This document shows, one piece after another, positions 36,689 to 55,592 of a DNA stretch of 64,000 bases. Every line of letters starts with the position of its first letter. Positions within the stretch are counted from its first letter, which is position 1. The position numbers and the translations under genes were made by a program. The notes under the pieces are model-generated. The model did not search any database. It was not told where the DNA came from and worked only from the letters and a program-made list of their open reading frames with translations. This stretch comes from Alphaproteobacteria bacterium UBA3773. Lineage in GTDB: Bacteria > Pseudomonadota > Alphaproteobacteria > RF32 > CAG-239. Location: the NCBI GenBank assembly GCA_002372275.1, contig DFFP01000013.1, positions 15,603 to 79,602 on the forward strand, read 5' to 3'.

Positions 36689-39600
36689 ATGGCAAATGAA
36701 CAAATGAGAAAATTTAACAGTAAAAATTTAGAAGAATATTTGGAAAACGCCGAAAATATTTTTAAGCACGGTTCGTCAGATGAGTTTGCAACCTCGCATG
36801 AACGCGCATTAGAGTATTTAGACGACTTTAATAACGGAAAATTAGATATTGATTTTGATGCAATTGATTCCATGGAGCGTTTTATTGAATATTTTGTCGG
36901 CGGATATAAAGTTGACAACCAAATGATGGCGCTTTACGATAAAGCTATGAAAAGATTAGAAGAATTGCGCAATGCGGCCAAACAGCAACAGCTTGAAGCA
37001 GAAAAGTCGGATTCTCAAGAAGAACTTCAAGCTCAAGAAGATAAAAAACAGCAAGAAAATGCAATTAAGGAAAATACTGAAGAGGTTGAAGTTGCCGATT
37101 TAACAAAGCTTTCAAATGAAAATCCTGAAGATCGCGCTAAAGTTGCACAAGTTCTCGAAGATCATCAAAAAGACTTTCCACTTGTTTATCAAAGTTTCGA
37201 AGAAATTTATCAAGATATTATCAAGGCCTATAAAACAGGCGAAGAAATTGATACACTTAACGATAAAATTCAAACAAAAGCTGACGCCGAAGCAGCACAG
37301 TTCGTGAAAAAAATTGTTGAAGAAAACACAGGCCATCAAGTTCCGACAATCAAAAAAACTTTGGTTATTGAAGACACTCATACTGATCAAGGTATTGATG
37401 ATAAGAAAATCAAAGATGTTGCCGAGCGCATTATAAATAACATAAAAGATACAAATAATCCTAAAGACGGCCGTCTTGATACCATTCAAAAAGAACTTTC
37501 AAGCTTAAATGGCGCTGAAATCGGTGCTCTTTATACCGAAATTGAAGGTAGAGATATTTCAACGAAGATTAAAGATAGATTGAAAACACAGTTATCTTAT
37601 CATTTAACAGAGAAGTTTTTAATCAAAAAAGAAGATCAAAAGCATACTTTTGAAGTTAGAGAAGATGTTGTTAATGCACTGTCTAATGAAGACGCAGCCG
37701 GTTATGTGACAGCTTTAGATATCGTGATGCAAAAGTCATATGATCAAAAGCGCCTTGATGACCTTTATGCCGCATTAAAACGCCGGGCAGAAGAGAAAGA
37801 ACAAACAAAAGTTTTAGATGATCTTTTAGGTCGTATTCGCAGTTTAAATTCGAATGCCAATGAAATCTTTTTAAATAGAGTTCGAATTGAAGCTTTACAT
37901 TCAATGAACAAAATTACGGATGCTGAAAGAACAGAGGCTTTACAAGATTCTCAAAAAGCAGCTCTATTGGTTGCCAATCACGAGTTAGAGCTTTCAGAAA
38001 ATCCGGCTGATCTTCAAACATATCGTGATTTTGTTTTTGATAAGTTGTTTGAAAATAAACAAACAAGAGATCTTGTACCACCGAAATATTTAGCCGCTAA
38101 ATATCTTGAATATGCTCAAAGAGCTGCCACAGAGCAGGATGTACAAAAAGTTCAAGAATATCAACAAAAGTGGCACGCTGTTGCAACCAGAATCCAAGAA
38201 TTAACGGATATGTTCGCCCGTGATGGACACCTGTCAAGGGATTTATATTTTGCTGATATCACCAACATAGCCGATATTTACGATGGATATATGGCCATGT
38301 TTGCCGCTGTTAAACCGGATTTAGAAGCTATGCTTCAAAATCCTCAAACAAAAGAAAGAGCAGAAGCAGATTTAAAGAAAATTGAAACATGCACTCAAAT
38401 TTTAGATGAACGAATCAAAGAATACGATGACGAATGGAATTTGACTCATTTACAAGAAACAGATGCTTTAGATGTTAATTCACGTATTGCCAAGATTCAA
38501 GATCAAATAAAAGACATTAAAGTCGATTCTGAAACCCTTAAACTTGCAAGTAATCTCAAATTCTTGGATGAAAACGGTAATATTGAACCTCAATTTATTG
38601 ATGAAAATGGTAACCAAACAGATGTATATTCCGAAGGTGCTAGGATTATTGAAGGAAGTAAACTTGATCAGCTCATCTATCTTTCCAAACAAGAAGTCAT
38701 TTCTAAAAATGCCGGTTCATCAGAAGAAATTACACCGGAATTTTTACAAAAAGAGCTTTCGGAAACTTTGGCCTCTTCTTTATATGCCATTCATGTTTCT
38801 GATCAAGTATCTAAAGGCGCTATAGAAAAAATTGATCAATTTACCAATAAAGATCATTTTGAAAAATTTAAAAATGATTTAGCGGACACTTCTCATCCGA
38901 TGAAGATCAGTCATCGAGGTTTTGAAGCCGGCAGATTTTCACTTGTTAATCGCTTGGATGCATATCGATCAAGGCTTACTCAAAAAATCGGACGCAATGC
39001 TCTGACAAATCGCGATGCGCATGCTGAAATGATTAAAAGAAAAGCCATGCAACTTGGTATGGCGCTTGGTGTGTCAACGGCCATCGGGCTTGTTTCCCTC
39101 GGAACAAACAAGGTTGTCGGTGCCGGTCTTGGTTGCGCACTGGGTGTAACGCTTTCAATTAAACAAATCCATAATTGGCGCAAACAACAAAAGGCCGAAG
39201 GAAAGCCTGCCGGTTTGAAAGAAATGTTTCATGATCGAAGACTTCGTCAAACAGTTGAAACGACAGCTTTAGCCGGTTGTGCCTTTGGCTTTTTAGCAAC
39301 AGGCAACCCTGATGTGGCCTTAGTTTTAGGAGGAGCCGCAATGGCAGTCGGATCAGTCAATGGCGCCATCTCTGATTATCAAGATGCCCAAAAAATGGGG
39401 ATGGGCAAAGGCTGGGCTGCCCTTTATGGCGCACTAGCGCCTATTATAACTGTCGGAGGAGGTCTTTTAGGCTCACAAGTTGTTGCACCGGGTATTGCAA
39501 ACTATGTTAACGAGCATTTTCCGAATAATACGATTTTCCAGCATAATGAGATCGTAGCTGGTGAAACGAAATCTATCAAAGTTGGAGAACGGACAACTAT

Positions 39601-41176
39601 AGATCAAGAAGCATTAGAAGCTGATTCTTCGCGTTATAACCAGCAATATGATATTGCCGGACGTCTTCATAACGGAATGACTCATGATCAGTATATGCAA
39701 GCCGTTGAAGAGTATAACCTCTCCCATCCGGATGCACCGATTACGCATCCTGATAATTTGTTACAACACGCATATAATGCAGAAAATGTTTATGGTCAGG
39801 GCTGGGCATCTGATCATGGTGTATCAATGACAGATATTAAAACATTGAGTCATTTAATTAATCCGGATGGTTCTATAAATCCTGATGCTGTCCAAGTATA
39901 TGAAAATGGTCAATTTATAAATCATGCCGGTTTAGAAAATTTTGTGGGAAAAGTATCTGATCCCAATATTGAACAAAGAGCTGATTTATATCCGACAAAA
40001 GATCCGCATTCAACCTATTCTGATATGAATCAACCGACAAAAACCGAAGCCATATACCGTGAAGTAACACCCATTGATCGTGTACCAGTGGCAAATCAAG
40101 GTCCTTTAATTATGGCAACTTTTGGCATATTAGATAGAGCCAAACAAAAATTAAGAAATACCAAAGAACGCATCGGCGCTTTGGCGGATATAGTTCTACG
40201 TCGCAAAAAAGACAAGCCTCGTCCCGGACCTCAACCGGTTATTGTTAATCCCCCACACGAGGATGACAATAAGAAGAAAAAGACTTATGTGACACCTGTC
40301 GTGACACAAATTGAAAAAGAACCGGTACATATTCTTCCCTCATCCCCGGCACCTCAACCTACTCCGGTCAAAGAAGATCCGAAACAGGCTCCAACGCCGA
40401 AACCTGAGCCATGGAAAGATAAATTATTGATTGATGAATATAAAATCGTCTATGGTATCGAACCGAAAGTTACTGCTTCTGAAGGTGAAAAGAGCCCTGC
40501 CGAGTTGTACTATGATCGTATTGAAAGTGAGCGTAAAGTTGAAGCTCCTGATTTATCCATGACCGACTATCTTTTAGCTCGTCGTGAAAAATTGGATAAA
40601 CTTGTTGCAACGATTGAAACTCAAGCAAACAATGCTTCTTTTGATCCGACAAAATGTAGAGCCGACTATATGACACGCAAAATAAAAGATCAAAGAGCCG
40701 GTGCAGAAATTGTTGCCAAATCGCGTCAAAGTCTGCAACAAAGTAATTTAACACATGAAAATTACAATCAAAAAGTTACTTTGACTCATTTCTTGAAATA
40801 TATGGAATATTATATTAAAGGGTCTGATGTTGTTGCTGATGGCTCTCGCGATATGACCTTAAATCCCGAGTTAAAACGTGATAATCGCGTAATTCACACA
40901 TATGATATCAATAAAATTTTGCTTGAAGGAAAAGATCCGAGTAGTGATGACAGTAAATTAACTGGCGATGCTCACATCACCTTTGGTGATATCAGAAGAA
41001 TCCATAACGAACGTACACGCGATGAAAAAATCGATGGTATCCATCCACCATTGACAAACGAAGTTGTCGCCAATTTTGCTAATCGCTTGGCAAAACTTGA
41101 TGAGGACAAAGCTAAAAATAACAGTCAGAGCGCTCAAGTTTCTGCTGGCAAAAAAAAAAGATACACGGGCCGATGA
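36689..41176 (+). CDS. Giant modular protein, N-terminal 1,495-aa segment (frame broken at an A10 tract)
   Basis: No signal peptide. Acidic coiled-coil-rich N-terminal ~800 aa, a Gly-rich hydrophobic region (~39040..39500), then the first ~180-aa C-terminal module. It terminates 16 nt after A10 at 41150..41159. Confidence 0.7.
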   Translation: MANEQMRKFNSKNLEEYLENAENIFKHGSSDEFATSHERALEYLDDFNNGKLDIDFDAIDSMERFIEYFVGGYKVDNQMMALYDKAMKRLEELRNAAKQQQLEAEKSDSQEELQAQEDKKQQENAIKENTEEVEVADLTKLSNENPEDRAKVAQVLEDHQKDFPLVYQSFEEIYQDIIKAYKTGEEIDTLNDKIQTKADAEAAQFVKKIVEENTGHQVPTIKKTLVIEDTHTDQGIDDKKIKDVAERIINNIKDTNNPKDGRLDTIQKELSSLNGAEIGALYTEIEGRDISTKIKDRLKTQLSYHLTEKFLIKKEDQKHTFEVREDVVNALSNEDAAGYVTALDIVMQKSYDQKRLDDLYAALKRRAEEKEQTKVLDDLLGRIRSLNSNANEIFLNRVRIEALHSMNKITDAERTEALQDSQKAALLVANHELELSENPADLQTYRDFVFDKLFENKQTRDLVPPKYLAAKYLEYAQRAATEQDVQKVQEYQQKWHAVATRIQELTDMFARDGHLSRDLYFADITNIADIYDGYMAMFAAVKPDLEAMLQNPQTKERAEADLKKIETCTQILDERIKEYDDEWNLTHLQETDALDVNSRIAKIQDQIKDIKVDSETLKLASNLKFLDENGNIEPQFIDENGNQTDVYSEGARIIEGSKLDQLIYLSKQEVISKNAGSSEEITPEFLQKELSETLASSLYAIHVSDQVSKGAIEKIDQFTNKDHFEKFKNDLADTSHPMKISHRGFEAGRFSLVNRLDAYRSRLTQKIGRNALTNRDAHAEMIKRKAMQLGMALGVSTAIGLVSLGTNKVVGAGLGCALGVTLSIKQIHNWRKQQKAEGKPAGLKEMFHDRRLRQTVETTALAGCAFGFLATGNPDVALVLGGAAMAVGSVNGAISDYQDAQKMGMGKGWAALYGALAPIITVGGGLLGSQVVAPGIANYVNEHFPNNTIFQHNEIVAGETKSIKVGERTTIDQEALEADSSRYNQQYDIAGRLHNGMTHDQYMQAVEEYNLSHPDAPITHPDNLLQHAYNAENVYGQGWASDHGVSMTDIKTLSHLINPDGSINPDAVQVYENGQFINHAGLENFVGKVSDPNIEQRADLYPTKDPHSTYSDMNQPTKTEAIYREVTPIDRVPVANQGPLIMATFGILDRAKQKLRNTKERIGALADIVLRRKKDKPRPGPQPVIVNPPHEDDNKKKKTYVTPVVTQIEKEPVHILPSSPAPQPTPVKEDPKQAPTPKPEPWKDKLLIDEYKIVYGIEPKVTASEGEKSPAELYYDRIESERKVEAPDLSMTDYLLARREKLDKLVATIETQANNASFDPTKCRADYMTRKIKDQRAGAEIVAKSRQSLQQSNLTHENYNQKVTLTHFLKYMEYYIKGSDVVADGSRDMTLNPELKRDNRVIHTYDINKILLEGKDPSSDDSKLTGDAHITFGDIRRIHNERTRDEKIDGIHPPLTNEVVANFANRLAKLDEDKAKNNSQSAQVSAGKKKRYTGR

Positions 41177-43565
41177 TACAACAAGGCAGAGGGCTGTAAA
41201 TCCCCCTGCCCCGAAACCTCAATCTCGAGGGGAAAAAGGCCTTACGGGTATAGCACCTGTTGAAAAACATGCTAAGCCTGAAGAACGTCGCGAACCCGTG
41301 ACACCTCCCGCACCGGTTCAAAAACCTAAAGAGGAAACAAGAGAAGCTCCAAAACCCGAGCCAACTGTTGTTGAAACAAGAGAAGCACCGAAACCTGAGA
41401 CAACTGTTGTTGAAACAAGAGAAGCACCGAAACCTGAGCCAAAAGTTGTTGAAACAAGAGAAGCACCGAAACTCGAGCCGAAAGTTGTTGAAACAAAAGA
41501 AGCGCCGAAACCTGAGCCTGTTTCAGAAACTCAGCTGTTCATTGACGAATATAAAACCGTCTACGGCGTCGAACCGAATTTCAAAGCGCCTAAAGGTGAA
41601 AAAAGCCCGGCAGAGTTGTACTATGATCGTGTTGAAAGTGAGCATCAACTTGAGGCTCCGAAACAATCGATGAGAGATTATCTGCTGGCTCGCCGCAAAG
41701 CATTGAATGACATCATCAAGGGTAATCCTCAATATGGTCAAACAAATGCTGAAATTATTGCAGCCGCTCGTCAAAGTTTGCTTCAGAGCAATTTAACAAC
41801 GGAAAATTATAACAATCGCCTGACTTTGTCTCACTTTACACGCTATATGACACTTTTCATTCATAGCGATGAAATTTTGGCTGACGGCTCACGCGATATG
41901 ACCTTAAATCCCGAGTTAAAACGTGATAATCGCGTAATTCACACATACGATATCAACAAGATTTTGTTTGAAGGAACGGATCCGAGAAGTGATGACAGTA
42001 AATTAACCGGCGATGCTCACATCACCTACGATGACATCAGAAGACTCCAAAATGAGCGCACACCTGAAGAAATAGAAAATGATTTTCATATTTCTCTGAC
42101 AAATGATGTTGTTGCAAATTTTGCCGAACGCTTTAAAGAACTTGATAAAGCTAAAGAAATTCAAGAAGCTGAACTCAAAGCAAAAGAAAAAGAAAAAGAA
42201 AAAGAAAAAGCTGAGACCGTGACACCTCCGATGCCGGTTCAAAAGCCTGAACCGAAAGAGAAAGAAGCTCCAAAACCCGAGCCGACCATTGTTGAAACAA
42301 AAAAAGCGCCGAAACCTCAATCTCAAGAAGAAAAAGGTCTCACCGGCGCGGCACCTATAACGGAATATGTCAAACCCGAGGAACACCATGAACCTGTTCA
42401 AAGCGTTCAAGATGAAAATAAATCTCTTCAAAATGAACCTTGGAACAATCCGTTATTGCTTCAAGAGTACGAAATCGTTTATGGTATTACGCCAAAAGTC
42501 ACTGCTTTAGAAGGTGAAAAGAGTCCTGCCGAATTGTACTATAAACGCGTTGCCAAAGAACGTTCTTTAGAAGGCTCACATCAATCAATCACGGATTATC
42601 TTTTAAGACGCCGTAAGAGATTGGATGAAATGGTTCAACTTTTAAAGCATCAACCAAACAATGCGACCTTTGACCCGAAAATCATGCTCGAGGATTACAG
42701 CGATCACTTAACGGGGCGCAAATCAGGTGGCAGAGCCGGTTCTGAGATTGTCACAAAAACGCGTCAAAGCCTTATGCAAAGTAATTTAACACCTGAAAAT
42801 TATGTCAAGCGTCTTACTTTGACACACTTTTTAAGATACATGAAACATTTTATTGAAGGTAATGAATTATTTTCTGACGGCTCACGTGATATGAGTTTGA
42901 ACCCAAGCTTAAAACGTAACTCAAATCACATATCGACTCATGATGTGAATGATGCCATTTTAAGCGGCAAAATTGAAAGAGCGCCAAAACGAGTAACAAA
43001 TGTAGTCATACATCGGCCCAAAAAAGAGCCTTGGAAAAATCCGTTATTGATGGAAGAATACAGAATCGTTTATGGTGTCGCTCCGAAAGCTGATTTAGAA
43101 CACTTAAAAGCTTACTGTAAACGTGTCATCAAAGAGCATCATAAAGAAGGCTTACACCGCTCAATGACAGAATATCTTTTAAGACGCCTCAGAAGGTTAG
43201 ACAGACTTGTAAAAGAAGTCAAAACGCAACCTAATAATGCTACTTTTGACCCTCAAGTAATGATCCAAGATTACAGCGATCACTTAACAGGTAAAAAAGC
43301 AGGCGGCCGAGCCGGTTCTGAAATTGTCATGAAAGCTCGCCAAAGCCTCATGCAAAGTAATCTGGCACCTGAAAATTACGTCAAGCGCTTTACTTTGACA
43401 CACTTTTTGAAGTACATAAAACACTTCATTGAAGGTAATGAGTTGGCCTCTGACAGCACGCGCAATATGAGTTTGAACCCTGACTTAAAACGTCGTTCAA
43501 ACACTATTCAAACACGTGATCTCAACGAAATCATTTTAGCGGAAAAATCTTCAAAAAGTAAATAA
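41064..43565 (+). CDS. Giant modular protein, C-terminal 833-aa segment (would be fused to the upstream ORF if A10 were A9)
   Basis: Overlaps the upstream ORF by 113 nt in another frame. Contains PKPEP/ETREAPKPEP linker repeats and three further ~180-aa modules homologous to module 1. Confidence 0.7.
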   Translation: MSPILLIAWQNLMRTKLKITVRALKFLLAKKKDTRADDTTRQRAVNPPAPKPQSRGEKGLTGIAPVEKHAKPEERREPVTPPAPVQKPKEETREAPKPEPTVVETREAPKPETTVVETREAPKPEPKVVETREAPKLEPKVVETKEAPKPEPVSETQLFIDEYKTVYGVEPNFKAPKGEKSPAELYYDRVESEHQLEAPKQSMRDYLLARRKALNDIIKGNPQYGQTNAEIIAAARQSLLQSNLTTENYNNRLTLSHFTRYMTLFIHSDEILADGSRDMTLNPELKRDNRVIHTYDINKILFEGTDPRSDDSKLTGDAHITYDDIRRLQNERTPEEIENDFHISLTNDVVANFAERFKELDKAKEIQEAELKAKEKEKEKEKAETVTPPMPVQKPEPKEKEAPKPEPTIVETKKAPKPQSQEEKGLTGAAPITEYVKPEEHHEPVQSVQDENKSLQNEPWNNPLLLQEYEIVYGITPKVTALEGEKSPAELYYKRVAKERSLEGSHQSITDYLLRRRKRLDEMVQLLKHQPNNATFDPKIMLEDYSDHLTGRKSGGRAGSEIVTKTRQSLMQSNLTPENYVKRLTLTHFLRYMKHFIEGNELFSDGSRDMSLNPSLKRNSNHISTHDVNDAILSGKIERAPKRVTNVVIHRPKKEPWKNPLLMEEYRIVYGVAPKADLEHLKAYCKRVIKEHHKEGLHRSMTEYLLRRLRRLDRLVKEVKTQPNNATFDPQVMIQDYSDHLTGKKAGGRAGSEIVMKARQSLMQSNLAPENYVKRFTLTHFLKYIKHFIEGNELASDSTRNMSLNPDLKRRSNTIQTRDLNEIILAEKSSKSK
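41150..41159 (+). repeat. Poly(A)10 homopolymeric tract at the frameshift site
   Basis: Ten consecutive A's. Deleting one A (or inserting two) joins the two ORFs into a single reading frame of about 2,290 codons. Confidence 0.9.
41338..41519 (+). repeat. 39-bp tandem repeat, about 4.7 copies (encodes ETREAPKPEP(T/K)VV)
   Basis: The unit agagaagcaccgaaacctgagccaaaagttgttgaaaca is repeated in tandem with minor variation. Confidence 0.85.
42181..42210 (+). repeat. (GAAAAA)n hexanucleotide tract encoding (KE)n
   Basis: gaaaaagaaaaagaaaaagaaaaag lying inside the coding sequence. Confidence 0.8.
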
Positions 43566-43625: not shown

Positions 43626-43841
43626 TTATTTTTCTTTTTCAATAGCGGTTGATGCAGAAAATAATTCATCATAAATAAGCCAAAGGGCAGACAATCCGAC
43701 CAATACATAAACAATTCGGGTTAAAATACTTAAATTCCCAAAAAGCAAAGCGACCAAATCAAGATTAAAAGCCCCGACGAGTCCCCAGTTCAAACCGCCG
43801 ATAATCACGAGCCAAAGTGCAATTTTACTTAAGTAATGCAT
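43626..43841 (-). CDS. DUF378 small membrane protein
   Basis: Two TM helices with the ...GGLNWGLVG.F..DLVA..FG pattern. Confidence 0.6.
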   Translation of the reverse strand: MHYLSKIALWLVIIGGLNWGLVGAFNLDLVALLFGNLSILTRIVYVLVGLSALWLIYDELFSASTAIEKEK

Positions 43842-45967: not shown

Positions 45968-47035
45968 ATGTCACGCGCGGAAGATATTTTTCAAAAACTG
46001 ATTTATTTTGGCGAAGATGCTTTAGATGAATTTATTGCCGAGCGGCAAACGGAAGAACTTTTTTTAGATTTTAAAGAAGCTGTTTCAGACGGCAAAAAGT
46101 TTAAAACACTTTATAAAGATGACAGACGCAATCTCGCCAAAGCAATTTCCGGATTCGGAAATTCGGAAGGCGGCGTTGTGGTATGGGGTGTTTCCTGCGC
46201 ACGTGACAAAGAAATCGGCGATGTTGCAAAAGCCAAAGTCAAGGTCAAAAATGTTCATCGTTTTTTAAGTTGGCTTGAAAATGCTATTTCAGGATGCACT
46301 ATTCCGAGTCACAACAAAGTTCGAAATCATATCATCAGTGTTGATGAAAACGGCGACGGATATGTGGCAACATATATTCCGAAATCTGATATTACCCCTC
46401 TCATGACCACGACTTCAAGCACCATATATATTCGCTCGGGCTCAAATAATGTGCCGGCTCCCTATGCGGTTATTGCCGGCATGTTCGGTAAGCGCCCGCA
46501 GCCGAATATTGATCTTTTGTTTGAAGATAAAACCTTAGAAATCATCGAAAATGTTGATGAAGATATTCTTTATCCGAAAACGATTGATAATCCGCCCGAT
46601 AAATATGTCAAAATCAGCTTTTCAATTATTGCTGACAATCAAAGCGACGCTATTGCCAAAGAGCTTTATTTTTCGGCAAATACATCAGAGACCGGCAGCG
46701 AATATAATAAAGTCCGCTTTTTGGGATATAACCAAATGGATTCGATTTCAAGTATTTCAGGACACTTTAATCTCATCACAAAACCGGAGCTTCGACTTCC
46801 GCCACGCGGAAAATTAAAGTTTACAACGGTGCAAATTATTTTATCCCCGTTTGCTGAAAGTGATTTTTGCTTTAATGGTGTGATAGGAGCTGAAAACGCA
46901 ATGCCGCGCGATTTCAGATTTTATTTATCCAAAAACGACCTGCGCTCATTTGTGGCTAAAGCACTCAAAAGCGAGGATGAAAGCCATATTTTACTTGCTG
47001 AATTTTTCTCTGACTTTTTAAGGGGAAACAATTAA
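45968..47035 (+). CDS. AlbA_2 / Schlafen-like putative DNA-binding domain protein
   Basis: N-terminal E...LDFKEAV....[19 protein letters not shown] pattern typical of the divergent AAA-4/AlbA_2 domain. The C-terminal ~220 aa has no recognizable domain. Confidence 0.55.
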
Positions 47036-47036
47036 A

Positions 47037-47489
47037 ATGATGAAACGCGTTGAAATCTATACAGACGGTGCTTGTTCCGGAAACCCGGGAATCGGTGGTT
47101 GGGGGTGTATTTTGCGCTATAAAGAAAACGAAAAAGAACTCTCGGGCGGAGAACTTCAAACAACCAACAATCGTATGGAGCTCACCGCCGTTATTGAAGC
47201 CTTAAAAGCCTTAAAAACAAGCTGTAACGTCACGCTTTATACCGATAGCAAATATGTAATGGACGGCATTACCGAATGGCTTTCAGAATGGAAGAAAAAC
47301 GGCTGGAAAACCAAAAGCAAAAAAAATGAAGTCAAAAACATTGACCTTTGGCAAATGCTTGATGAGTTGAAATCAAAGCATGAAATTCGTTTTGTTTGGG
47401 TCAAAGGCCATAACGGGGACGAAGGCAACGAAAGAGTTGATGCTTTAGCCAGATCGGAAGTCATAAAATTAAAAGCACAAGAAAAGTAA
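47037..47489 (+). CDS. rnhA: Ribonuclease HI
   Basis: [15 protein letters not shown] and a conserved C-terminal DE..N.R.D.LA. Confidence 0.9.
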
Positions 47490-49188: not shown

Positions 49189-49304
49189 AGAAATTCCTTA
49201 TATAAAAATTTATAATGAGCCTATAACAAAAAATTTTCAAAGAAAAGCAAAAAAAGACTTGCACAGAAAAAAATAATGTTGTATGAAGTGAGCGTTACAA
49301 CAAT

Positions 49305-49381
49305 CGGATTGTAGTTCAGCCTGGTAGAACGCTTCGTTCGGGTCGAAGAGGTCGCTGGTTCGAATCCAGTCAATCCGACCA
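49305..49381 (+). tRNA. tRNA-Pro (anticodon CGG)
   Basis: Cloverleaf: acceptor CGGATTG/CAATCCG, D-stem GTTC/GAAC, anticodon stem CTTCG/CGAAG with loop TTCGGGT, T-arm GCTGG-TTCGAAT-CCAGT, encoded CCA. Confidence 0.9.
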
Positions 49382-49399
49382 ATATAGATAACAATTAGG

Positions 49400-49429
49400 A
49401 AACGGATACTTTTGAGTGTCCGTTTTTTT
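49400..49429 (+). terminator. Terminator-like hairpin after the tRNA
   Basis: aacgga...tccgtt followed by T7. Confidence 0.5.
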
Positions 49430-49550
49430 GTTGCCTATTAGAAAAGTATTGTCGTTAAAGTAATTTCACGATATTAAAAATTTTATGACCATGAGGTCAC
49501 TTTTGAGGAATTTTTTCGTAAAAACGCTCTTTAAATATAAATTTGAAACT

Positions 49551-49586
49551 TGACCACGTGGACACTTTTCACGCGCCACGTGGTCG
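49551..49586. promoter_or_regulatory. Pair of inverted GACCACGTGG motifs (candidate operator)
   Basis: tgaccacgtggacac at 49551..49565 and cgccacgtggtcg at 49574..49586. The palindromic core CCACGTGG recurs at the cassette boundary. Confidence 0.35.
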
Positions 49587-49702
49587 TAACGCATTGATTT
49601 TATTTAATTGTCATAAAAATCTATGCTGTTTTCCGCAATCTTAAGAGTGGTGGGGTATACTGAGGATACTGACAACGTGCTTTTTATTATTAAAAATCAA
49701 CA

Positions 49703-49722
49703 ACATATACTGTCCACGTGGT
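49703..49722. repeat. Left 20-bp terminal inverted repeat of the defence cassette
   Basis: acatatactgtccacgtggt. Confidence 0.75.
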
Positions 49723-49791
49723 AATAAAACTTGACTTTTATATTTTTTCAAGCGTTATTGTAGTAAGTGTCTATACAGAAAGGAGAACAAC

Positions 49792-49977
49792 ATGACTCAA
49801 GCCGAAAAACTCGTTAAAATTATCATGCCGGATTTGTTAAGATATTTAAAATTAAAAGAACGTGGTCTTGTATGTCAAAATCGCGTTTTGCAACGAATTC
49901 CGTTAGATCAAAGGGAGAAAAAAGAGGAAGAATTTGAAGAATTCAGCGAGGAAGCTAATAAAATCTTAAATAAGTAA
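49792..49977 (+). CDS. Small hypothetical protein (61 aa), first gene of the cassette
   Basis: Strong RBS (aaaggagaacaac-ATG); basic N-terminal half and acidic C-terminus; possible regulator. Confidence 0.35.
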   Translation: MTQAEKLVKIIMPDLLRYLKLKERGLVCQNRVLQRIPLDQREKKEEEFEEFSEEANKILNK

Positions 49978-50036
49978 AATTTTTATTGCTATAATTTTTA
50001 ATTCAGCCTATACTCTTTTCTGACCTAGGATACAAA

Positions 50037-50972
50037 ATGAATAACGCATTAATTTTAAATGAAGACTATTTAGAGTTTCATGCAAAGCCCGTTTTAAAGT
50101 GGGCTGGCGGCAAAGGTATGCTTTTACCACAAATCACAGAGCATTTACCTACAAAGTTAAAATTTGGTGCAATAAAGCGTTATATTGAACCGTTTGTCGG
50201 CGGTGGTGCTGTTTTCTTTGAACTGACAAACAACTATAATTTTGAAGATGCGTATCTGTTTGATGTTAATCCTGAACTAGTTATACTCTATAATGTGATT
50301 AAAAATAACGTTGAAGATTTGATATCTGAGTTGTCCGTTTTACAGCAAGCTTATAATGATGCATCGGATAAAACGGCATTCTACTATTCTATTCGTGATG
50401 AGTATAATCATTTTGATAAAAATGTGGATGCAAATAAATATACAACTGATTTTATTAGGCGCGCAGCTTTAACAGTTTGTTTGAACCGAACCTGTTTTAA
50501 TGGTTTGTTTAGGGTTAATTCAAAGGGACTGTTTAACGTTCCTGTCGGAAAGTACAAGAATCCGCGGATTTTAGATGAAAGTAATTTAAGAGAAGTTTCA
50601 AAAGCTCTGCAGTGCGCAACAATACTGCAAACGGATTTTGCTTCTGCTTTAGACTATGTAAACTCTGATGCCTTTGTTTATTATGACCCACCGTATCGAC
50701 CGATTAACGCCAGTTCGTTTAATTCTTATGCTGTTGGCGATTTTGATGATGATGAACAAAGACGTTTAAAAGATGTTTTCGCTAAGGCAAATGAGTTAGG
50801 CGCTTTGCAGATGCTCAGCAATTCTGACCCGACCAACTACAATCCTAAAGACATGTTCTTTGATAGTTTATATCGTGATTATACAATTCACAGAATTTGG
50901 GCAAAAAGAATGATTAATGCTGATCCGAATGGTCGCGATGGTGTAAGGGAACTTTTAATTACGAACTATTGA
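50037..50972 (+). CDS. Dam-family (alpha-class) N6-adenine DNA methyltransferase
   Basis: N-terminal AdoMet motif LKWAGGKG and the catalytic YYDPPY later in the sequence, which is the order seen in Dam/M.DpnII-like enzymes. Confidence 0.85.
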   Translation: MNNALILNEDYLEFHAKPVLKWAGGKGMLLPQITEHLPTKLKFGAIKRYIEPFVGGGAVFFELTNNYNFEDAYLFDVNPELVILYNVIKNNVEDLISELSVLQQAYNDASDKTAFYYSIRDEYNHFDKNVDANKYTTDFIRRAALTVCLNRTCFNGLFRVNSKGLFNVPVGKYKNPRILDESNLREVSKALQCATILQTDFASALDYVNSDAFVYYDPPYRPINASSFNSYAVGDFDDDEQRRLKDVFAKANELGALQMLSNSDPTNYNPKDMFFDSLYRDYTIHRIWAKRMINADPNGRDGVRELLITNY

Positions 50973-50974
50973 GA

Positions 50975-51760
50975 ATGAAAGAGATTTATAATTTATATTG
51001 TGCCGATTGTATTAAAAAATTAAAAGATTTCCCTGAAAACACTTTTGATATGATTTTTGCTGACCCGCCTTATATGCTTTCTAATGGTGGTATTAGTTGT
51101 CAAAACGGACGTGTTGTTTCCGTTAATAAAGGTGATTGGGATGAAAGCAAAGGTTTCAAAGAAGATTTTAAATTTCACAAGAAATGGTTGTCAGCCTGTA
51201 AGCGCGTTTTGAAACCAAATGGAACTTTATGGGTATCCGGAACCTATCACAGCATTTTTCAATGTGGTTTTGCTATGCAGTTACTGGGGTATCATATTCT
51301 AAATGATATTTCTTGGTTTAAGCCTAATGCCAGCCCGAATATGTCTTGTCGTTATTTCACAGCAAGTCATGAAACGTTGATTTGGGCCAGAAAAGATAAG
51401 AAATCGCGGCACTATTTTAATTATGATGCGATGAAAGACGGGGATTTTCCGAAAGATTTTATTAAAAAACCTCACTCGCAAATGAGAAGTGTTTGGTCTA
51501 TCGGAACACCTACACCGAGTGAAAAACAATTTGGGAAGCACCCGACCCAAAAGCCTTTGGAGTTGTTGGAACGAATCATTCTCGCTTCAACAAAGGAAAA
51601 TGACCTGATTTTGGATCCGTTTATGGGAAGTGGCACAACCGGAGTAGCCGCTATGAAATTAGGTCGACAATTTATCGGAATCGAAAAGAATCCGGAATTT
51701 ATCGTGCTGGCGGATAAAAGGATTTTTGATGCGTATCAACATAAGGAGAATAAAGAATGA
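50975..51760 (+). CDS. Beta-class N6A/N4C DNA methyltransferase (M.DpnA/M.MboIC-like)
   Basis: Catalytic DPPY near the N-terminus (MIFADPPYM) and AdoMet motif ILDPFMGSGTTG near the C-terminus. An ATG at 50975 is preferred over the TTG at 50969. Confidence 0.85.
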   Translation: MKEIYNLYCADCIKKLKDFPENTFDMIFADPPYMLSNGGISCQNGRVVSVNKGDWDESKGFKEDFKFHKKWLSACKRVLKPNGTLWVSGTYHSIFQCGFAMQLLGYHILNDISWFKPNASPNMSCRYFTASHETLIWARKDKKSRHYFNYDAMKDGDFPKDFIKKPHSQMRSVWSIGTPTPSEKQFGKHPTQKPLELLERIILASTKENDLILDPFMGSGTTGVAAMKLGRQFIGIEKNPEFIVLADKRIFDAYQHKENKE

Positions 51761-52299
51761 AAGAAAATGGTATAGGTGGTGCAAACACCAAGACAGGTTT
51801 GGTCTTTGAAGGAAAAACAGATTTGCAAACATTTTTATGTGGGCAAAAGGGATACTCATGCCAAACTAATAATTCAGGTTGGGTAGATGTCTTTTATAAC
51901 AAAGAACAAGTTGCTTCTATTTTTAAGAAAACAGCACTATATCGTTTTCTCGACAGTAGAAAGGTTGATTGGAAATCTATATTATCCAAAAAACTTTTGC
52001 CAGACGATTCTATTTATGTCGTCTGCAATAATACCTTTTTTGTTATAGAATGTAAATTTCAGAAAGTTGCAGGTTCTGTTGATGAAAAACTACAAACATG
52101 TGATTTTAAGAAAAAACAATATAAAAAGTTGTTGGCTCAACTTAATATGGAAGTAGAATATATATACTTATTGAGTGAGTGGTTTAAACAAAAACAATAT
52201 AAAGATGTTTTGGAGTATATTATTTCTGTTGGATGCTCTTATTACTTTGAATACATTCCGTTGAGCAAGTTTGGTTTACCTGTTCCTGAAAAAATATGA
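51757..52299 (+). CDS. Putative type II restriction endonuclease (PD-(D/E)xK)
   Basis: 180 aa with PDD...(15 aa)...IECK, matching the PD-(D/E)xK signature. Its ATG overlaps the MTase stop (ATGA). Specificity unknown. Confidence 0.5.
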   Translation: MKENGIGGANTKTGLVFEGKTDLQTFLCGQKGYSCQTNNSGWVDVFYNKEQVASIFKKTALYRFLDSRKVDWKSILSKKLLPDDSIYVVCNNTFFVIECKFQKVAGSVDEKLQTCDFKKKQYKKLLAQLNMEVEYIYLLSEWFKQKQYKDVLEYIISVGCSYYFEYIPLSKFGLPVPEKI

Positions 52300-52312
52300 A
52301 AGGAAAATTTAT

Positions 52313-53368
52313 ATGACAAAAGAATATAATTACAAGTTAACGAGTTATAATGCGAGTTTTAGCTTAAAAGAGTATACAGAAAGATATGCTGAAAAAAGTA
52401 TCTCTGATGAGGAAAATGTGCTCAAAATAGGTCGTTTCTTTGCACCAGCTTTTCAAAGAAATGCTGTTTGGACTGATAAAGCTAAAAGTAAGCTAATCGA
52501 AACTTTTTTAATTAAGTTACCTGTTCCTCCTGTTTTTTTATACAAAAATAGAAATGCTCAACATGAAATTATTGATGGTTATCAGAGAATTAAAACAATA
52601 TATGATTTTATGAAAAATAAGCTAAGGTTGGTAGGTTTAGATAGCTGTTACAACAAAAAAATCTTTGATGATTTATCAGAAATAGAAAAAGCTGACTTTG
52701 AAACAAAGATGTTAAATTGTGTTATCATAGAAAATATTGATGAAACAAGTGATAGAGATGCTTTATATGAAATTTTTGCGCGCCTAAATTCTGGGGGAAC
52801 AAATTTAAATAATATGGAGATTAGAAGAGCGATAGGTTGGGGCAGATTATTATTTGACATAGAAGAATTTAATAAAACTAGAGAATGGAAACTTTTATGG
52901 GGAGAAAAAACAGCAAATCGTTATGAGGATATAGAATTAATTTTAAGAATTCTGGCATTATCTGAAGTAGTATTTGATAAAGGAATGAGGGAATTTTTAA
53001 ATAATTATCTTGAAGACAATAAATATGCAGATAAGCGTGAAAAGTTAAATCTTCTGAAGAACTCCATTTTACTAATTTTAGAAAATTATAAATCTAATAA
53101 GCCTTTTCACAGCGAAAAAGGAACAAGAGTAAATTTTGCTCTTGCTGATTCTATTTTACCTGTGATAATGAATCATCCCGAAATTTCCAACATTTCTCAA
53201 AAACTTCATAAATTACTGGATAGAGATTTTGATAACTATTATAGTAGCGAGCTAGAAAAGGAACTTTGTAAAAATTTCCAAAGTATTTGTTTTAAAGGGC
53301 AAGGTTCTATATCGAAAAAAGCTGTTTGTGAACGTAGAAATATCGCTGAAAAGATTTTATTGTCATGA
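52313..53368 (+). CDS. DUF262 (ParB-like, DGQHR-motif) domain protein
   Basis: Conserved FQR...DGYQRI motif (the DGxQR of DUF262/GmrSD N-terminal domains). An RBS aagga immediately follows the REase stop, and the ATG at 52313 is preferred over the TTG at 52271. Confidence 0.7.
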   Translation: MTKEYNYKLTSYNASFSLKEYTERYAEKSISDEENVLKIGRFFAPAFQRNAVWTDKAKSKLIETFLIKLPVPPVFLYKNRNAQHEIIDGYQRIKTIYDFMKNKLRLVGLDSCYNKKIFDDLSEIEKADFETKMLNCVIIENIDETSDRDALYEIFARLNSGGTNLNNMEIRRAIGWGRLLFDIEEFNKTREWKLLWGEKTANRYEDIELILRILALSEVVFDKGMREFLNNYLEDNKYADKREKLNLLKNSILLILENYKSNKPFHSEKGTRVNFALADSILPVIMNHPEISNISQKLHKLLDRDFDNYYSSELEKELCKNFQSICFKGQGSISKKAVCERRNIAEKILLS

Positions 53369-53886
53369 TAGTATATCTAAAACAGACGGAAAAACTTTTT
53401 CTTTCTCTTAACGAGGAATATAAAAATTCAAAAGCTGCAGGTGTGTTGACAGTTGTAACTCCTACGGCATTTGTTTCTTTTTTAATTATTCGTCTATCGT
53501 GCGAATTCGAATATTATGTACATGACATTGTAATTAAAAAGTGGAAATCTGAAACAACTTCAACAAAATTACATAATTTTCTACAAAATAAAATAAAAAT
53601 TCGTTCCTCTAAAAGAGAGCAATTACGTAATAATTTAAAAGAATATTTTGTAGATATTGATAATATTGATATTTTGTTTACTGATGACAAAGGGAAAAAT
53701 TACTATGATAAGATATTTGGAAAGAAAAAGGATGAGACAGGAGAGAATAATATAAGAGACCAAATAGCACATTTGTTAAGTTTACAGTTTTCTCTGTTGC
53801 CTCAATGGGATGAAATGTATGATTATATCCAAATTTGTGATAATGCCTTACAAAATATTGAAGCGAATTTGGATTTTAAGATGTAA
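53365..53886 (+). CDS. HEPN-like protein (Rx4H motif), possibly of the MAE_28990/MAE_18760-like family
   Basis: The start overlaps the DUF262 stop (ATGA). All-helical, with a C-terminal ...NNIRDQIAHLL (R-x4-H) motif. The family assignment is made from memory. Confidence 0.45.
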   Translation: MIVYLKQTEKLFLSLNEEYKNSKAAGVLTVVTPTAFVSFLIIRLSCEFEYYVHDIVIKKWKSETTSTKLHNFLQNKIKIRSSKREQLRNNLKEYFVDIDNIDILFTDDKGKNYYDKIFGKKKDETGENNIRDQIAHLLSLQFSLLPQWDEMYDYIQICDNALQNIEANLDFKM

Positions 53887-53899
53887 AAATAATCTTAAG

Positions 53900-53919
53900 A
53901 CCATGTGGACAGTATATGT
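53900..53919. repeat. Right 20-bp terminal inverted repeat of the defence cassette
   Basis: accatgtggacagtatatgt; its reverse complement acatatactgtccacatggt matches the left repeat at 19 of 20 positions. Confidence 0.75.
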
Positions 53920-54082
53920 CATTGTTTTTGAAATAAAAAAAGTACGTGGCTGGTATCTTCAGTTTGGGTGTTCACAATGGTTGCGAAACTGCGACCAAGT
54001 GGTATAACTAATTGAAATAGAATAATTTTTTAACCGTCAAAAAATGGTATCTTTTTCCTGATTTAGGGGTAGTTTGCACGAC

Positions 54083-54126
54083 CAAGACACAAAGACCGCC
54101 TTTATGGCGGTTTTTTTTGTGTCTTG
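54083..54126. terminator. Long bidirectional terminator hairpin
   Basis: caagacacaaag-accgcc-tttat-ggcggt-tttttttt-gtgtcttg (nested stems). Confidence 0.7.
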
Positions 54127-54139
54127 AATGCGAAAGCGT

Positions 54140-54156
54140 GGGGTTCGAACCAGCGA
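54140..54156 (-). other. Decayed tRNA T-arm-like fragment (13-nt identity to tRNA-Pro, inverted orientation)
   Basis: The minus-strand sequence tcgctggttcgaa is identical to positions 49350..49362 of the tRNA-Pro gene. The flanks do not fold as a full tRNA. Confidence 0.4.
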
Positions 54157-54248
54157 GAAGCTGTTCGACAAGAAGGATAAGGCACACGAGGTGTGCCGGT
54201 GCCGTTAGGCATATCCGACGCAGCGACGCAGATTTTTTTGATAAAAAA

Positions 54249-54270
54249 ATCAAGTCAATCCAGTCATAAG
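54249..54270 (+). repeat. Direct repeat copy 1 (atcaagtcaatccagtcataag), weakly resembling the tRNA-Pro 3' end
   Basis: About 19 of 21 positions identical to copy 2 at 55572..55592. Shares agtcaatcc with the tRNA 3' strand. Confidence 0.5.
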
Positions 54271-54379
54271 GCCAACACAAGAAAATCCTGCCCTTTTGAC
54301 TTAACAGAACTTATTTCTCTTGATTTTTGACAAAAATAGTATAAAATATTGATTAGTTAAAGATGGATTAGAGGCGAAA

Positions 54380-55426
54380 ATGAACTGCGACGATTTTGAA
54401 GCTTTGAGTTGTTTGTGTAAGATAACTGCATCTGCTGAAACTGGTTTGGTTAGATTTGAAGCACAGAGAGGATATGAAGTTACTGTGGCTGAATTAATCA
54501 AAAAAAATCAGCTTGAAAATTTATCTACGAAAGCATGGCATAATTTTTGGGAGGAATATATGCCAACTATTCAAGTACGTAGAAAATTAAGAGAACAGAA
54601 AATCAATGATTTTAAAAATAAGTCTTCGGAAAATATCGCTCAGCTTTCGTTAAAAGAAAGAATTGATTATCTTGAAGCCATATTTCATAAATATCAAACA
54701 AAGGGTGAAATGTCTGATATTTGCTCTAAAAATAAGGATAAATTAATGACGCTGCTTTATGGCATCAAATTGCCGAAGGATTTTTGGAAAAGTGAGGATC
54801 AACAAGCCGATCGCTTTGTTTCATTGGTTGCTCATAATAAAAAAATTACCGATAATATGAAAAATTGGCACAATATCAGTATAGAAGATAAAAAAGAAAC
54901 AATAAAAGAAACGGTAAAGATTATTGGATATGTATATGGTGCTCCTTTGGAAGTCGGATTTTATACTTCGGAGGAATATCGGAAAAAAGAGAATCTTGAT
55001 GAAAATGCACCGGTATTCGGAGCATATCATCAAGAAGGAAAATTATTTTTTAATACCGATCGTTTAGAAAATAGCGATAACTATATGGGAGTATCTGTTG
55101 TATTTCATGAATTTACACATAAACGGCAAAAAGAAACAAAGTTTGAAGACCCGTTGATAAACAGATTATTTGCTTGTAGAGTATATAACGCTGTTGGTTA
55201 TGAAAGGATAAATGTAGATACTTCCTCTCCGGAATACGGCGATATATATTCGTTAATGCCAACTGAAGTACACGCGTATGCTATGCAAAAATATGTTGAA
55301 GATGAGATTACAAATAAAACCGGAATAGAAAAGACTCAAGCTCAAGAAACAAAAGATGTAAGGCAAGTGCATGATAAATCTTTTGCTGTGGCTGCAATAG
55401 CATTGCAACATTCAAATCGAAGATAA
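54380..55426 (+). CDS. HExxH zinc-metallopeptidase-like protein (348 aa)
   Basis: Motif VVFHEFTHKRQ in the C-terminal third; flanked by ~21-bp direct repeats. Confidence 0.45.
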   Translation: MNCDDFEALSCLCKITASAETGLVRFEAQRGYEVTVAELIKKNQLENLSTKAWHNFWEEYMPTIQVRRKLREQKINDFKNKSSENIAQLSLKERIDYLEAIFHKYQTKGEMSDICSKNKDKLMTLLYGIKLPKDFWKSEDQQADRFVSLVAHNKKITDNMKNWHNISIEDKKETIKETVKIIGYVYGAPLEVGFYTSEEYRKKENLDENAPVFGAYHQEGKLFFNTDRLENSDNYMGVSVVFHEFTHKRQKETKFEDPLINRLFACRVYNAVGYERINVDTSSPEYGDIYSLMPTEVHAYAMQKYVEDEITNKTGIEKTQAQETKDVRQVHDKSFAVAAIALQHSNRR

Positions 55427-55571
55427 CAACCACATTCTCAATGAAGAACCATACGACGAAAGCCGAAGGTATCTTTAGCTTGCTCCGAACGACTCTTGTC
55501 TATCCGTCTTTTCGTCAAGCTTTGGGTTCGTTTTTCACCGCATGGAGCAGGTAGTTTATACATTTGCTATT

Positions 55572-55592
55572 ATCAAGTCAATCCGGTCAAAG
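55572..55592 (+). repeat. Direct repeat copy 2 (atcaagtcaatccggtcaaag)
   Basis: See copy 1. Confidence 0.5.

Follow-up and report, generated by a model that had tools for sequence, protein, structure and literature searches.

Cis-mobilizable elements (CIMEs), as defined previously (PMC6323972), form tandem arrays by accretion, and tandem as well as degenerate elements integrated at tRNA genes have been described (bioRxiv 10.1101/2020.12.28.424599). The ssrA islands of Dehalococcoides are also tandem, with a serine recombinase of ~540 amino acids (aa) beside attL, and the integrase-less ones among them were suggested as possible cis-mobilizable elements (PMC3146451). Among defence systems, PD-T4-2 is a validated pair of a DUF262 and a HEPN protein (Vassallo et al. 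2022; PMC10952713, PMC9519451), Anantharaman et al. listed ParB/DUF262-HEPN operons that adjoin methylase genes in 2013 (PMC3710099), and Menshen (NsnABC) consists of NsnA, the ABC-ATPase NsnB and NsnC, an inPIN-effector protein (PMC12065111). Here we compare with these a 4.7-kb defence islet behind a tRNA-Pro gene in a 64,000-nt stretch of DNA from Alphaproteobacteria bacterium UBA3773 (contig DFFP01000013.1, positions 15,603 to 79,602), hereafter the window.

The islet probably belongs to a family of small integrative islets that are non-autonomous, resemble CIMEs and are moved in trans. As mapped against related loci, it occupies 49382-54084, bears no recombinase and has at its borders a 6-8-bp direct repeat of the tRNA terminus. 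This extent follows from the left junctions, which are constant, and the right junctions, at which CGACCA is followed by unrelated sequence. The family is hosted by uncultured gut Alphaproteobacteria. Between the two arms of an imperfect inverted repeat lie six co-directional open reading frames (ORFs), and the features from left to right are as follows.

49305-49381, + strand: tRNA-Pro(CGG), found by ARAGORN and by Rfam (64 bits); CCGACCA at 49375-49381 is the left junction (attL core).
49382-49655, + strand: LEFTEND, conserved non-coding sequence that immediately follows tRNA-Pro or a copied tRNA-Pro 3′ end in 13 related loci, at 83-97% identity.
49659-49727, + strand: left arm of the inverted repeat, with its tip at 49703-49722, from repeat searches, an nhmmer survey and arm alignment.
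49727-49791, + strand: conserved promoter-like leader, directly inside the left arm, with TTGACT at 49731-49736.
49792-49977, + strand: leader ORF (ORF1) of 61 aa, the first operon gene in every islet bearing restriction-modification (R-M) genes.
50037-50972, + strand: M1, Dam-family (DpnM-like) N6-adenine DNA methyltransferase (PF02086, 2e-61; TIGR00571, 5e-83).
50975-51760, + strand: M2, beta-class (DpnA-like) N6/N4 DNA methyltransferase (PF01555, 2e-63).
51757-52299, + strand: PD-(D/E)XK nuclease of 180 aa (PF20472), with no DpnII-family match.
52313-53368, + strand: DUF262 (ParB/GmrS-N-like) protein (PF03235, 2e-26), related to NsnA and PD-T4-2_A.
53365-53886, + strand: HEPN-fold protein of 173 aa with an invariant R131-x4-H136 motif.
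53895-53963, − strand: right arm of the inverted repeat, with its tip at 53900-53919, from the same searches and arm alignment.
53964-54084, + strand: RIGHTEND, conserved non-coding sequence ending ...AAAATGGTATCTTTTTCCTGATTTAGGGGTAGTTTGCACGACCA, 71-97% identical in related loci.

An earlier sequence-only reading had taken two 20-bp inverted repeats around the six genes as the precise termini of a mobilisable cassette. The six genes do lie exactly between the repeats, as the ORF map and family searches confirm, and the tRNA-Pro gene placed about 320 bp upstream is 321 nt from the left 20-mer by ARAGORN, the tRNA being the sole Rfam match over 49200-54500. The repeats, however, are not the ends. 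Boundary mapping with ~25 related metagenomic loci (relatives are labelled L002-L038) extends the identity between copies 321 nt past the left 20-mer, to the tRNA CCA, and 165 nt past the right 20-mer, to CGACCA at 54084. Outside the arms, 274 nt on the left and 122 nt on the right are conserved non-coding sequence, and with the arms included the conserved ends amount to ~340 nt and ~190 nt, respectively. When junctions are compared across loci, the left one reads ...CCGACCA followed by ATAT..., and the right one ...GTGTGC(C/A)CGACCA followed by variable sequence, with a direct repeat of 7-8 bp in sister loci. In the window, the right terminus is ...GCACGACCA, whose CGACCA at 54079-54084 is a short direct repeat of the tRNA end. 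LEFTEND opens with a terminator-like hairpin just 3′ of the tRNA. In a feature map of 18 loci, the conserved parts keep a constant order of tRNA-Pro or a copy of its 3′ end, LEFTEND, left arm, leader with ORF1, M1, M2, restriction enzyme, accessory gene, right arm and RIGHTEND.

Mobility of the family is seen most directly in sister islets. A sister islet spans 5,470 bp, counted from the first base behind the tRNA up to where RIGHTEND stops. It shows 99.3-99.4% identity among L029, L032, L033 and L034, and 98.7-98.8% for L030. Its flanks (3 kb on the left and 2 kb on the right) have zero similarity between loci, and the adjoining tRNA-Pro genes are 72-84% identical, those of L029 and L032 being the same. 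Islets are located after the UGG, GGG and CGG isoacceptors of tRNA-Pro. Such near-identical units behind three isoacceptors with unrelated flanks indicate that the family is site-specifically mobile and has spread recently between unrelated sites and hosts. The window itself shares the left context of nfo and tRNA-Pro(CGG) with L034, where nfo is 64% identical in DNA and the islet sequence 94%, the similarity ending exactly at 54084. L003 is 95% identical to the window across 49375-54260 in a different context, with a 13-nt copy of the tRNA-Pro 3′ end and no tRNA on its left, and a serine recombinase gene on its right. The sequence-only reading had doubted that this was an ordinary resident R-M locus, which the sister islets in unrelated neighbourhoods bear out. 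Of its two suggestions for the cassette, hitch-hiking stands, with no recombinase of its own and sisters behind three tRNA-Pro genes, and a MITE-like nature (miniature inverted-repeat transposable element, MITE) does not, the repeats not being termini.

No recombinase was found within family members in the gene tables of 15 related loci and in Pfam scans, nor did the gene content of the 15 loci and Pfam reveal integrase or transfer genes in the islet. A Pfam scan of ~40 window ORFs, which are housekeeping or unknown genes including SufBD, SecDF, MurJ, ClpX and RecA, yielded no integrase, recombinase or transposase, in agreement with the earlier remark that no integrase or transposase was visible. 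Plasmid and phage collections gave no islet match, and viral contigs contained neither the 20-mer nor the RIGHTEND pattern. The islets insert straight behind the 3′ CCA of tRNA-Pro genes, whichever the isoacceptor, or behind displaced copies of this terminus, and we propose that a site-specific recombinase supplied in trans moves them. The arms and additional GWCC-N4-GGWC boxes would be bound by a dimeric protein for recombination, for control of the promoter abutting the left arm, or for both.

The inverted pair itself is as described before. The left 20-mer, ACATATACTGTCCACGTGGT (49703-49722, + strand), and its inverted copy at 53900-53919 match at 19 of 20 positions and are the only copies in the 64 kb at ≤3 mismatches, and shuffling produced a match in 0 of 100 trials. 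The repeat is longer than first noted, since the arms are complementary at 77% over ~65-69 nt with small indels, the 20-mer being the inner, cargo-facing tip of each arm and its best conserved part. The stop codon of the HEPN gene ends at 53886, 13 nt before the right 20-mer rather than 14 nt. Nor is the 20-mer a common intergenic sequence, for it is unique in the window as a pair, and five of its six metagenome matches are related islets, the sixth being a chance match in a coding region (a 20-mer in L017, inside an 876-aa ORF, was set aside as such). The metagenome scan showed no arm-to-arm solo elements and no copies away from tRNA-Pro.

The left arm has two direct ATACTGNCNACGTG boxes ~41 nt apart with an A/T-rich spacer between them. 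In an alignment of 20 arms, left (L-type) and right (R-type) arms differ consistently, so the arm duplication is old. Blocks kept in both types are ACTGAGGATAC, a CxACGTG box, the A/T-rich spacer and the tip ACATATACTGTCCACRTGGT. All window matches to CCAYRTGG and to strict GWCC-N4-GGWC fall within the non-coding ends of the islet, and boxes of the latter type stand in LEFTEND at 49487, 49552 and 49574. This confinement suggests an array of sites for a dimeric protein, and arms and boxes are putative binding sites for a recombination factor and/or a transcription regulator of that kind, the regulator coming to mind because the left tip ends 8 nt before the conserved TTGACT. LEFTEND and RIGHTEND were also considered as inverted copies of each other beyond the arms, and this was rejected with alignment scores at or near the shuffled-control range.

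Nine loci have the complete arm pair (the window, L003, L029, L030, L032-L035 and L038), around two different cargos. The 18-locus map rules out the arm pair as a constant feature of the family. Genes without repeats at their ends, which the sequence-only reading held to speak against its cassette, do occur in part, with the left arm missing from L004 and L026 and the right arm from L031, L036 and L037. L004 keeps all six genes and has lost 181 bp including the left arm, a deletion between two 9-bp AAACTTGAC repeats (window 49545-49734 versus L004 215-240). In L026, unrelated sequence takes the place of the left arm while the leader ORF and methyltransferases are retained; L023 has a degenerate right arm alone, and L031 has neither arm. 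The 181-bp indel segment contains three CCACGTGG boxes besides the left arm, and it starts with CCACGTGGACACT and ends with ACTGTCCACGTGG, a 12/13 inverted match. The arms are the innermost parts of the conserved ends, marking the switch from conserved end to exchangeable cargo, and not the cut-and-join points of the element.

In L014, L015, L016 and L018 there is just one arm, of R type; the leader adjoins it on the inside and drives leftward cargo. The arm-plus-leader unit, conserved across related loci, thus heads different cargo in these four. The leader may well contain a promoter, and a scan for the sigma-70 consensus did not single it out as one. The arms could be transcriptional operators unrelated to mobility, bound by the 61-aa protein or a host factor, in an islet that is still a tRNA-Pro island, the second, inverted arm being a relic of the old duplication or a looping operator. 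We consider this account as a whole somewhat unlikely. It draws on the 8-nt distance between left tip and TTGACT, on the retention of arm plus leader ahead of unrelated cargo, on boxes whose palindromic form is typical of dimeric regulators, and on a duplication so old that L and R types differ and yet the 20-bp tip is kept in both. On the other hand, an inner-side promoter is absent from the right arm, the more widespread of the two, in the window, L026 and L029; L015 and L016 lack the 61-aa ORF but retain arm and promoter; and further boxes lie in LEFTEND and RIGHTEND far from any promoter.

A more far-reaching proposal, which we put forward as speculative and doubtful, is that the right arm, RIGHTEND, CGACCA, LEFTEND and the left arm (~525 bp) would form a self-contained integration platform without a recombinase. 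Through the GWCC-N4-GGWC boxes, a recombinase of the host or a helper would be drawn to the CCGACCA end of any tRNA-Pro, and the arm tips would be points of cargo exchange. In an excised circle, the ~525 bp would be contiguous and capped by the 65-bp inverted repeats with the best-conserved tips outermost, and a circle or tandem junction would read RIGHTEND...CGACCA joined to ATATAGATAACAATT... If true, the platform would be a new class of hitch-hiking defence vehicle, with a logic like that of integron platforms or integrative mobile elements exploiting Xer (IMEX), and with a tRNA target. In L015 (3287-5830), right arm, leader and RIGHTEND are present, LEFTEND is absent, and two APH-family kinase genes read toward tRNA-Pro(UGG); the platform is therefore not limited to defence genes.

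It is improbable that the locus is a decayed, immobile remnant of an integrative and conjugative element (ICE) or prophage that lost its recombinase, with ends that are functionless scars. The recombinase is indeed absent, remnants stand in tandem downstream (a ~180-nt MODULE and a second islet whose tRNA-end copy is degenerate, both described below), and degenerate elements beside tRNAs are common (bioRxiv 10.1101/2020.12.28.424599). However, the recombinase-less form recurs at several unrelated sites at 99.3-99.4% identity with identical length and ends, and the window islet is 94% identical to that of L034, against only 64% for nfo. Independent decay would not produce equally precise and identical boundaries at every site.

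That the 4.2-kb unit between the 20-bp repeats is itself the mover, as a MITE-like or transposon-like cassette with terminal inverted repeats, now seems very improbable. The pair is real, unique in the window and an exact bracket around the six genes; the same two arms surround different cargo in seven other loci, and conservation peaks at the cargo-facing tips. Yet the identity between independent copies continues past the 20-mers, by 321 nt on the left and 165 nt on the right, and L004, L026, L031, L036 and L037 do without one or both arms. No target-site duplication, which the sequence-only reading proposed to look for, was seen in the sequence outside the arms, whether these are taken as 20 nt or ~65 nt, no transposase was found among the scanned window ORFs, and the metagenome scan gave no arm-to-arm solo element or copy away from tRNA-Pro. 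Boundary mapping has already largely refuted this model. An invertible segment, in which the arms are recombination sites and the operon flips as a phase-variation switch, has hardly any likelihood left, for although an inverted repeat around a gene block is the anatomy of such a segment and the R-type arm with inner leader and promoter in L014, L015, L016 and L018 is the right junction expected after crossover in the 20-bp tip, the gene block is flipped in 0 of 13 distinct two-arm or left-arm loci, the promoter lies inside the segment so that inversion would not switch expression, the cargo of L014 and L015 is different rather than a flipped copy, L015 has neither LEFTEND nor left arm, and no invertase is seen nearby.

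In the non-autonomous islet moved in trans, which we favour, the cargo is exchanged in parts. Judged by how they are distributed among relatives, the six genes are three separable modules and not one system. Module 1 is the leader ORF, module 2 an R-M core that would be DpnII-type, and module 3 a variable accessory slot, occupied here by a PD-T4-2-like pair. Diverged relatives have the DUF262-HEPN pair alone, with similarity to the window limited to 52293-53886, and L020-L022 have the R-M genes without the pair, with similarity beginning at 49980, just after ORF1. An order of DUF262-HEPN followed by methyltransferases in L011 was regarded as unreliable, the scaffold having a run of N between them. 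The variants probably arise by homologous recombination between islets, for which the M1-M2 genes and the right arm with RIGHTEND would be the anchors.

The 61-aa ORF is evidently a real, conserved gene. It has 57 homologues; 44 contigs bear its exact sequence and 49 a variant at 98%, and it always precedes M1, M2 and the restriction enzyme in R-M-bearing loci, with no match in Pfam, NCBIfam, PADLOC or PHROG. Look-ups with it gave 15 further loci with ORF1-M1-M2. In nine of these (L026, L029, L030, L032-L035, L037 and L038), M2 is followed by a DpnII-family enzyme (PF04556, 298 aa), and in the other six (among them L023-L025, L031 and L036), as in L003 and L004, by the 179/180-aa PF20472 enzyme. 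Behind a methyltransferase pair that is 97-99% identical in amino acids, one enzyme gives way to the other precisely where M2 has its stop codon (window 51757-52299 versus L026 5190-6086 and L029 8966-9862). The window has the Dam-type M1 and DpnA-like M2 of a DpnII-type system without the PF04556 enzyme, and its M1 and M2 are 95-97% and 98-99% identical in amino acids, respectively, to those of DpnII-bearing sister islets. Because the methyltransferases are nearly identical to DpnII-paired copies, the R-M core would be DpnII-type with GATC as its site, and the 180-aa PD-(D/E)XK protein an isospecific restriction enzyme that takes the place of DpnII. The PF20472 family has >6000 members, ~70% identical across phyla, and may be an unrecognised family of GATC restriction enzymes. 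In L023 (10664-11371), and also in L024 and L025, a DpnI-family gene (PF06044, for methyl-directed GmATC cleavage) lies just outside an islet with Dam-type methylases; the two are incompatible if both act on GATC, so one would differ in specificity or be inactive.

After the restriction enzyme, the accessory slot contains HATPase_c_3, an AriA/OLD/GajA-like ATPase, AbiU/AIPR, pEK499_p136 HEPN or unannotated proteins in different loci. In the window, the DUF262 protein matches the PADLOC profiles NsnA (2.2e-49) and PD-T4-2_A (7.9e-35) as well as phrog_2598 (3e-57), and GmrSD_N (residues 39-173) is the sole domain detected, the DUF1524 nuclease domain being absent. The 173-aa HEPN protein belongs to a family of about 5-8 known sequences, has no family-profile match, and is the likely RNase effector that works with the DUF262 protein. 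For these two proteins and for the nuclease, nothing useful came from searching solved structures by sequence. In the proposed course of defence, GATC restriction would be the first layer, and the DUF262-HEPN pair probably a second, abortive-infection layer behind it, in which the DUF262 NTPase would be a sensor that releases the HEPN RNase, by analogy with PD-T4-2 and the proposed role of NsnA (PMC12065111). The sequence-only reading overstated the novelty of R-M with DUF262/HEPN as not a textbook system, since PD-T4-2 and the operons catalogued in 2013 precede it (PMC10952713, PMC9519451, PMC3710099). As DUF262 with HEPN is the validated PD-T4-2 architecture, the gene combination is known, although the HEPN family is new. 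Useful particulars of the element are the hypervariability of its accessory slot, a restriction enzyme other than DpnII behind methylases of the DpnII type, and this HEPN family, an orphan.

Two further units follow the islet in the window.

54085-54266, + strand: MODULE, ~180 nt, with a terminator at 54091-54115, two hairpins and, at 54248-54266, 19 nt that copy the tRNA 3′ end in degenerate form.
54267-55589, + strand: second small islet in tandem, with an orphan 348-aa ORF at 54380-55426 and a third copy of the tRNA 3′ end at 55571-55589.

With these further copies of the tRNA end, the tRNA-Pro locus is a tandem array. The copy in MODULE matches 19/19 in L026, L029 and L037. MODULE occurs on either side of islets, with copies at L003 240-431 and 5134-5320, L023 6396-6591, L026 8097-8276, L029 12062-12269 and L037 11094-11258. 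Its hairpins have compensatory base changes across 11 copies in 7 of 15 predicted pairs and a conserved GACGGGAGTA loop, and no Rfam family was found for it. MODULE probably survives as the right arm (attR) of a further element, of the serine-recombinase type, that integrates at tRNA-Pro, or it may be a structured RNA. The second islet is flanked by ATCAAGTCAATCCRGTCA copies of the tRNA end, 55571-55589 matching 54248-54266 at 17 of 19 positions; its 348-aa ORF has no Pfam match and is in a single-member protein cluster. An approximate tRNA-end match at 43684, beside a small reverse-strand ORF, was treated as chance.

In L003 and L008, a large serine recombinase ORF stands directly after the tRNA-end copy of MODULE and reads through the copy, a layout known from the Dehalococcoides ssrA islands (PMC3146451). 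In L010 (2920-6647), the reverse strand encodes a large serine recombinase of 541 aa, the gene overlapping tRNA-Leu(CAA) with its 3′ end, and a 62-aa ORF and a DUF262-HEPN pair (HEPN 63% identical in aa) follow; L010 looks like an autonomous tRNA-integrating element with the same defence pair.

Several points weigh against the view that the islet is moved in trans and defends its host. The only helper candidates are the large serine recombinases next to the tRNA-end repeat in L003 and L008, a weak link of adjacency alone on two contigs, and large serine integrases normally neither need long arm sequences nor create repeats of 6-19 bp. The direct repeat of the window islet is only 6 bp (CGACCA). 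No empty tRNA-Pro site was found, look-ups of nfo, the 348-aa ORF, a pilin and a hexapeptide transferase giving the occupied locus or nothing, and a scan of genome collections with the tRNA 3′ end gave a single contig of a metagenome-assembled genome (MAG), which ends at the tRNA. No circular or excised junction was found either. Since several members do without one arm, neither arm is required for persistence of the islet. The comparison sequences are all metagenomic contigs, one of them (L011) a gapped scaffold. As for the cargo, it is predicted from sequence that the R-M core is specific for GATC, that the 180-aa enzyme restricts DNA and that the DUF262-HEPN pair acts against phages, and five members of the HEPN family had no match to the PF18735 and PD-T4-2_B profiles even at E≤10.

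Upstream of the locus (window 36689-43565) are two very large ORFs, of 1495 aa with no Pfam match and of 833 aa with a match to the MOV-10 helical domain only. About 2 kb upstream of the tRNA (45968-47489), a gene for a 355-aa Schlafen/AlbA_2-domain protein is followed by a 150-aa ORF, annotated as RNase H in the related contig L002, and the two may be another defence-like pair.

The islet is a precisely delimited case of defence-gene travel in uncultured gut bacteria, in which a recombinase-less unit of 4.7-5.5 kb has inserted recently behind three different tRNA-Pro genes, the identity of core genes between hosts being only ~64%. One methylase pair serves two unrelated restriction enzymes. 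A fixed R-M core with a hypervariable slot, which holds HEPN, OLD/AriA-like, AbiU, HATPase, DUF262-HEPN and two unannotated proteins, is a place to seek new defence genes. Should the ends and arms turn out to be cis sites for a trans-acting recombinase, this family would offer a tractable model of hitch-hiking integration at tRNA genes.

Compared with known systems, the DUF262-HEPN pair is closest to PD-T4-2, in which a DUF262 gene is also followed by that of a small HEPN protein with Rx4H, often next to DNA methylase genes. Component A is thus present as the DUF262 protein, whereas the HEPN partner falls outside PF18735/PD-T4-2_B, the family of component B, and the DUF262 protein scores higher against NsnA of Menshen than against PD-T4-2_A. 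By analogy, the pair may act like PD-T4-2 irrespective of membership. No ATPase or NsnC-like gene of Menshen was found in the islet. In type IV systems of the GmrSD/BrxU kind, DUF262 is fused to or paired with a DUF1524 (GmrSD_C) HNH-type nuclease, whereas the islet DUF262 gene adjoins a HEPN gene instead.

The DpnII and DpnI cassettes of Streptococcus pneumoniae are reportedly alternative cassettes at one locus with conserved flanks. The islet has the same order of a Dam-type M1, a DpnA-like M2 and a restriction enzyme, and sister islets hold the true PF04556 DpnII; it differs in the unrelated 180-aa PF20472 enzyme, the extra 61-aa ORF, the accessory defence slot and its integration at tRNA-Pro.

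MITEs and transposons with terminal inverted repeats likewise have an imperfect inverted repeat of 20-65 bp around a DNA segment, but the repeats of the islet are sub-terminal with the best-conserved tips inward, without target duplication, transposase or dispersed copies. IMEX elements such as CTXphi and the gonococcal genetic island integrate at dif via the host XerCD. They too have no recombinase of their own and use one supplied by the cell, a resemblance that is conceptual only, the target of the islet being the tRNA-Pro 3′ end and not dif. We know of no host recombinase with specificity for the tRNA-Pro 3′ end.

The Dehalococcoides ssrA islands and the staphylococcal cassette chromosome (SCC) and pseudo-SCC elements of the CcrB type resemble the tandem islands described here with direct repeats of the tRNA end, and a reverse-strand serine recombinase next to attL is found in ssrA islands as in L010 and L003. 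The targets here are tRNA-Pro and tRNA-Leu rather than ssrA or orfX, the islet repeat is 6-8 bp rather than ~20 bp, and the association of islet and serine recombinase is adjacency alone, unlike in ssrA and SCC elements.

CIMEs are usually deletion derivatives of a specific adjacent ICE, whereas the islet is one compact form at three tRNA-Pro isoacceptors, with long conserved non-coding ends and sub-terminal inverted arms. To our knowledge, the islet family has no described parent element. Like CIMEs (PMC6323972), the islet has attL/attR-like direct repeats of its target and no integration or transfer genes, and it stands in tandem with other elements at the same site, one of which bears a recombinase. 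As in tRNA islands and CIMEs, without integrase or transfer genes, it lies at a tRNA 3′ end with a direct repeat at its far side and recurs as the same unit between unrelated flanks.

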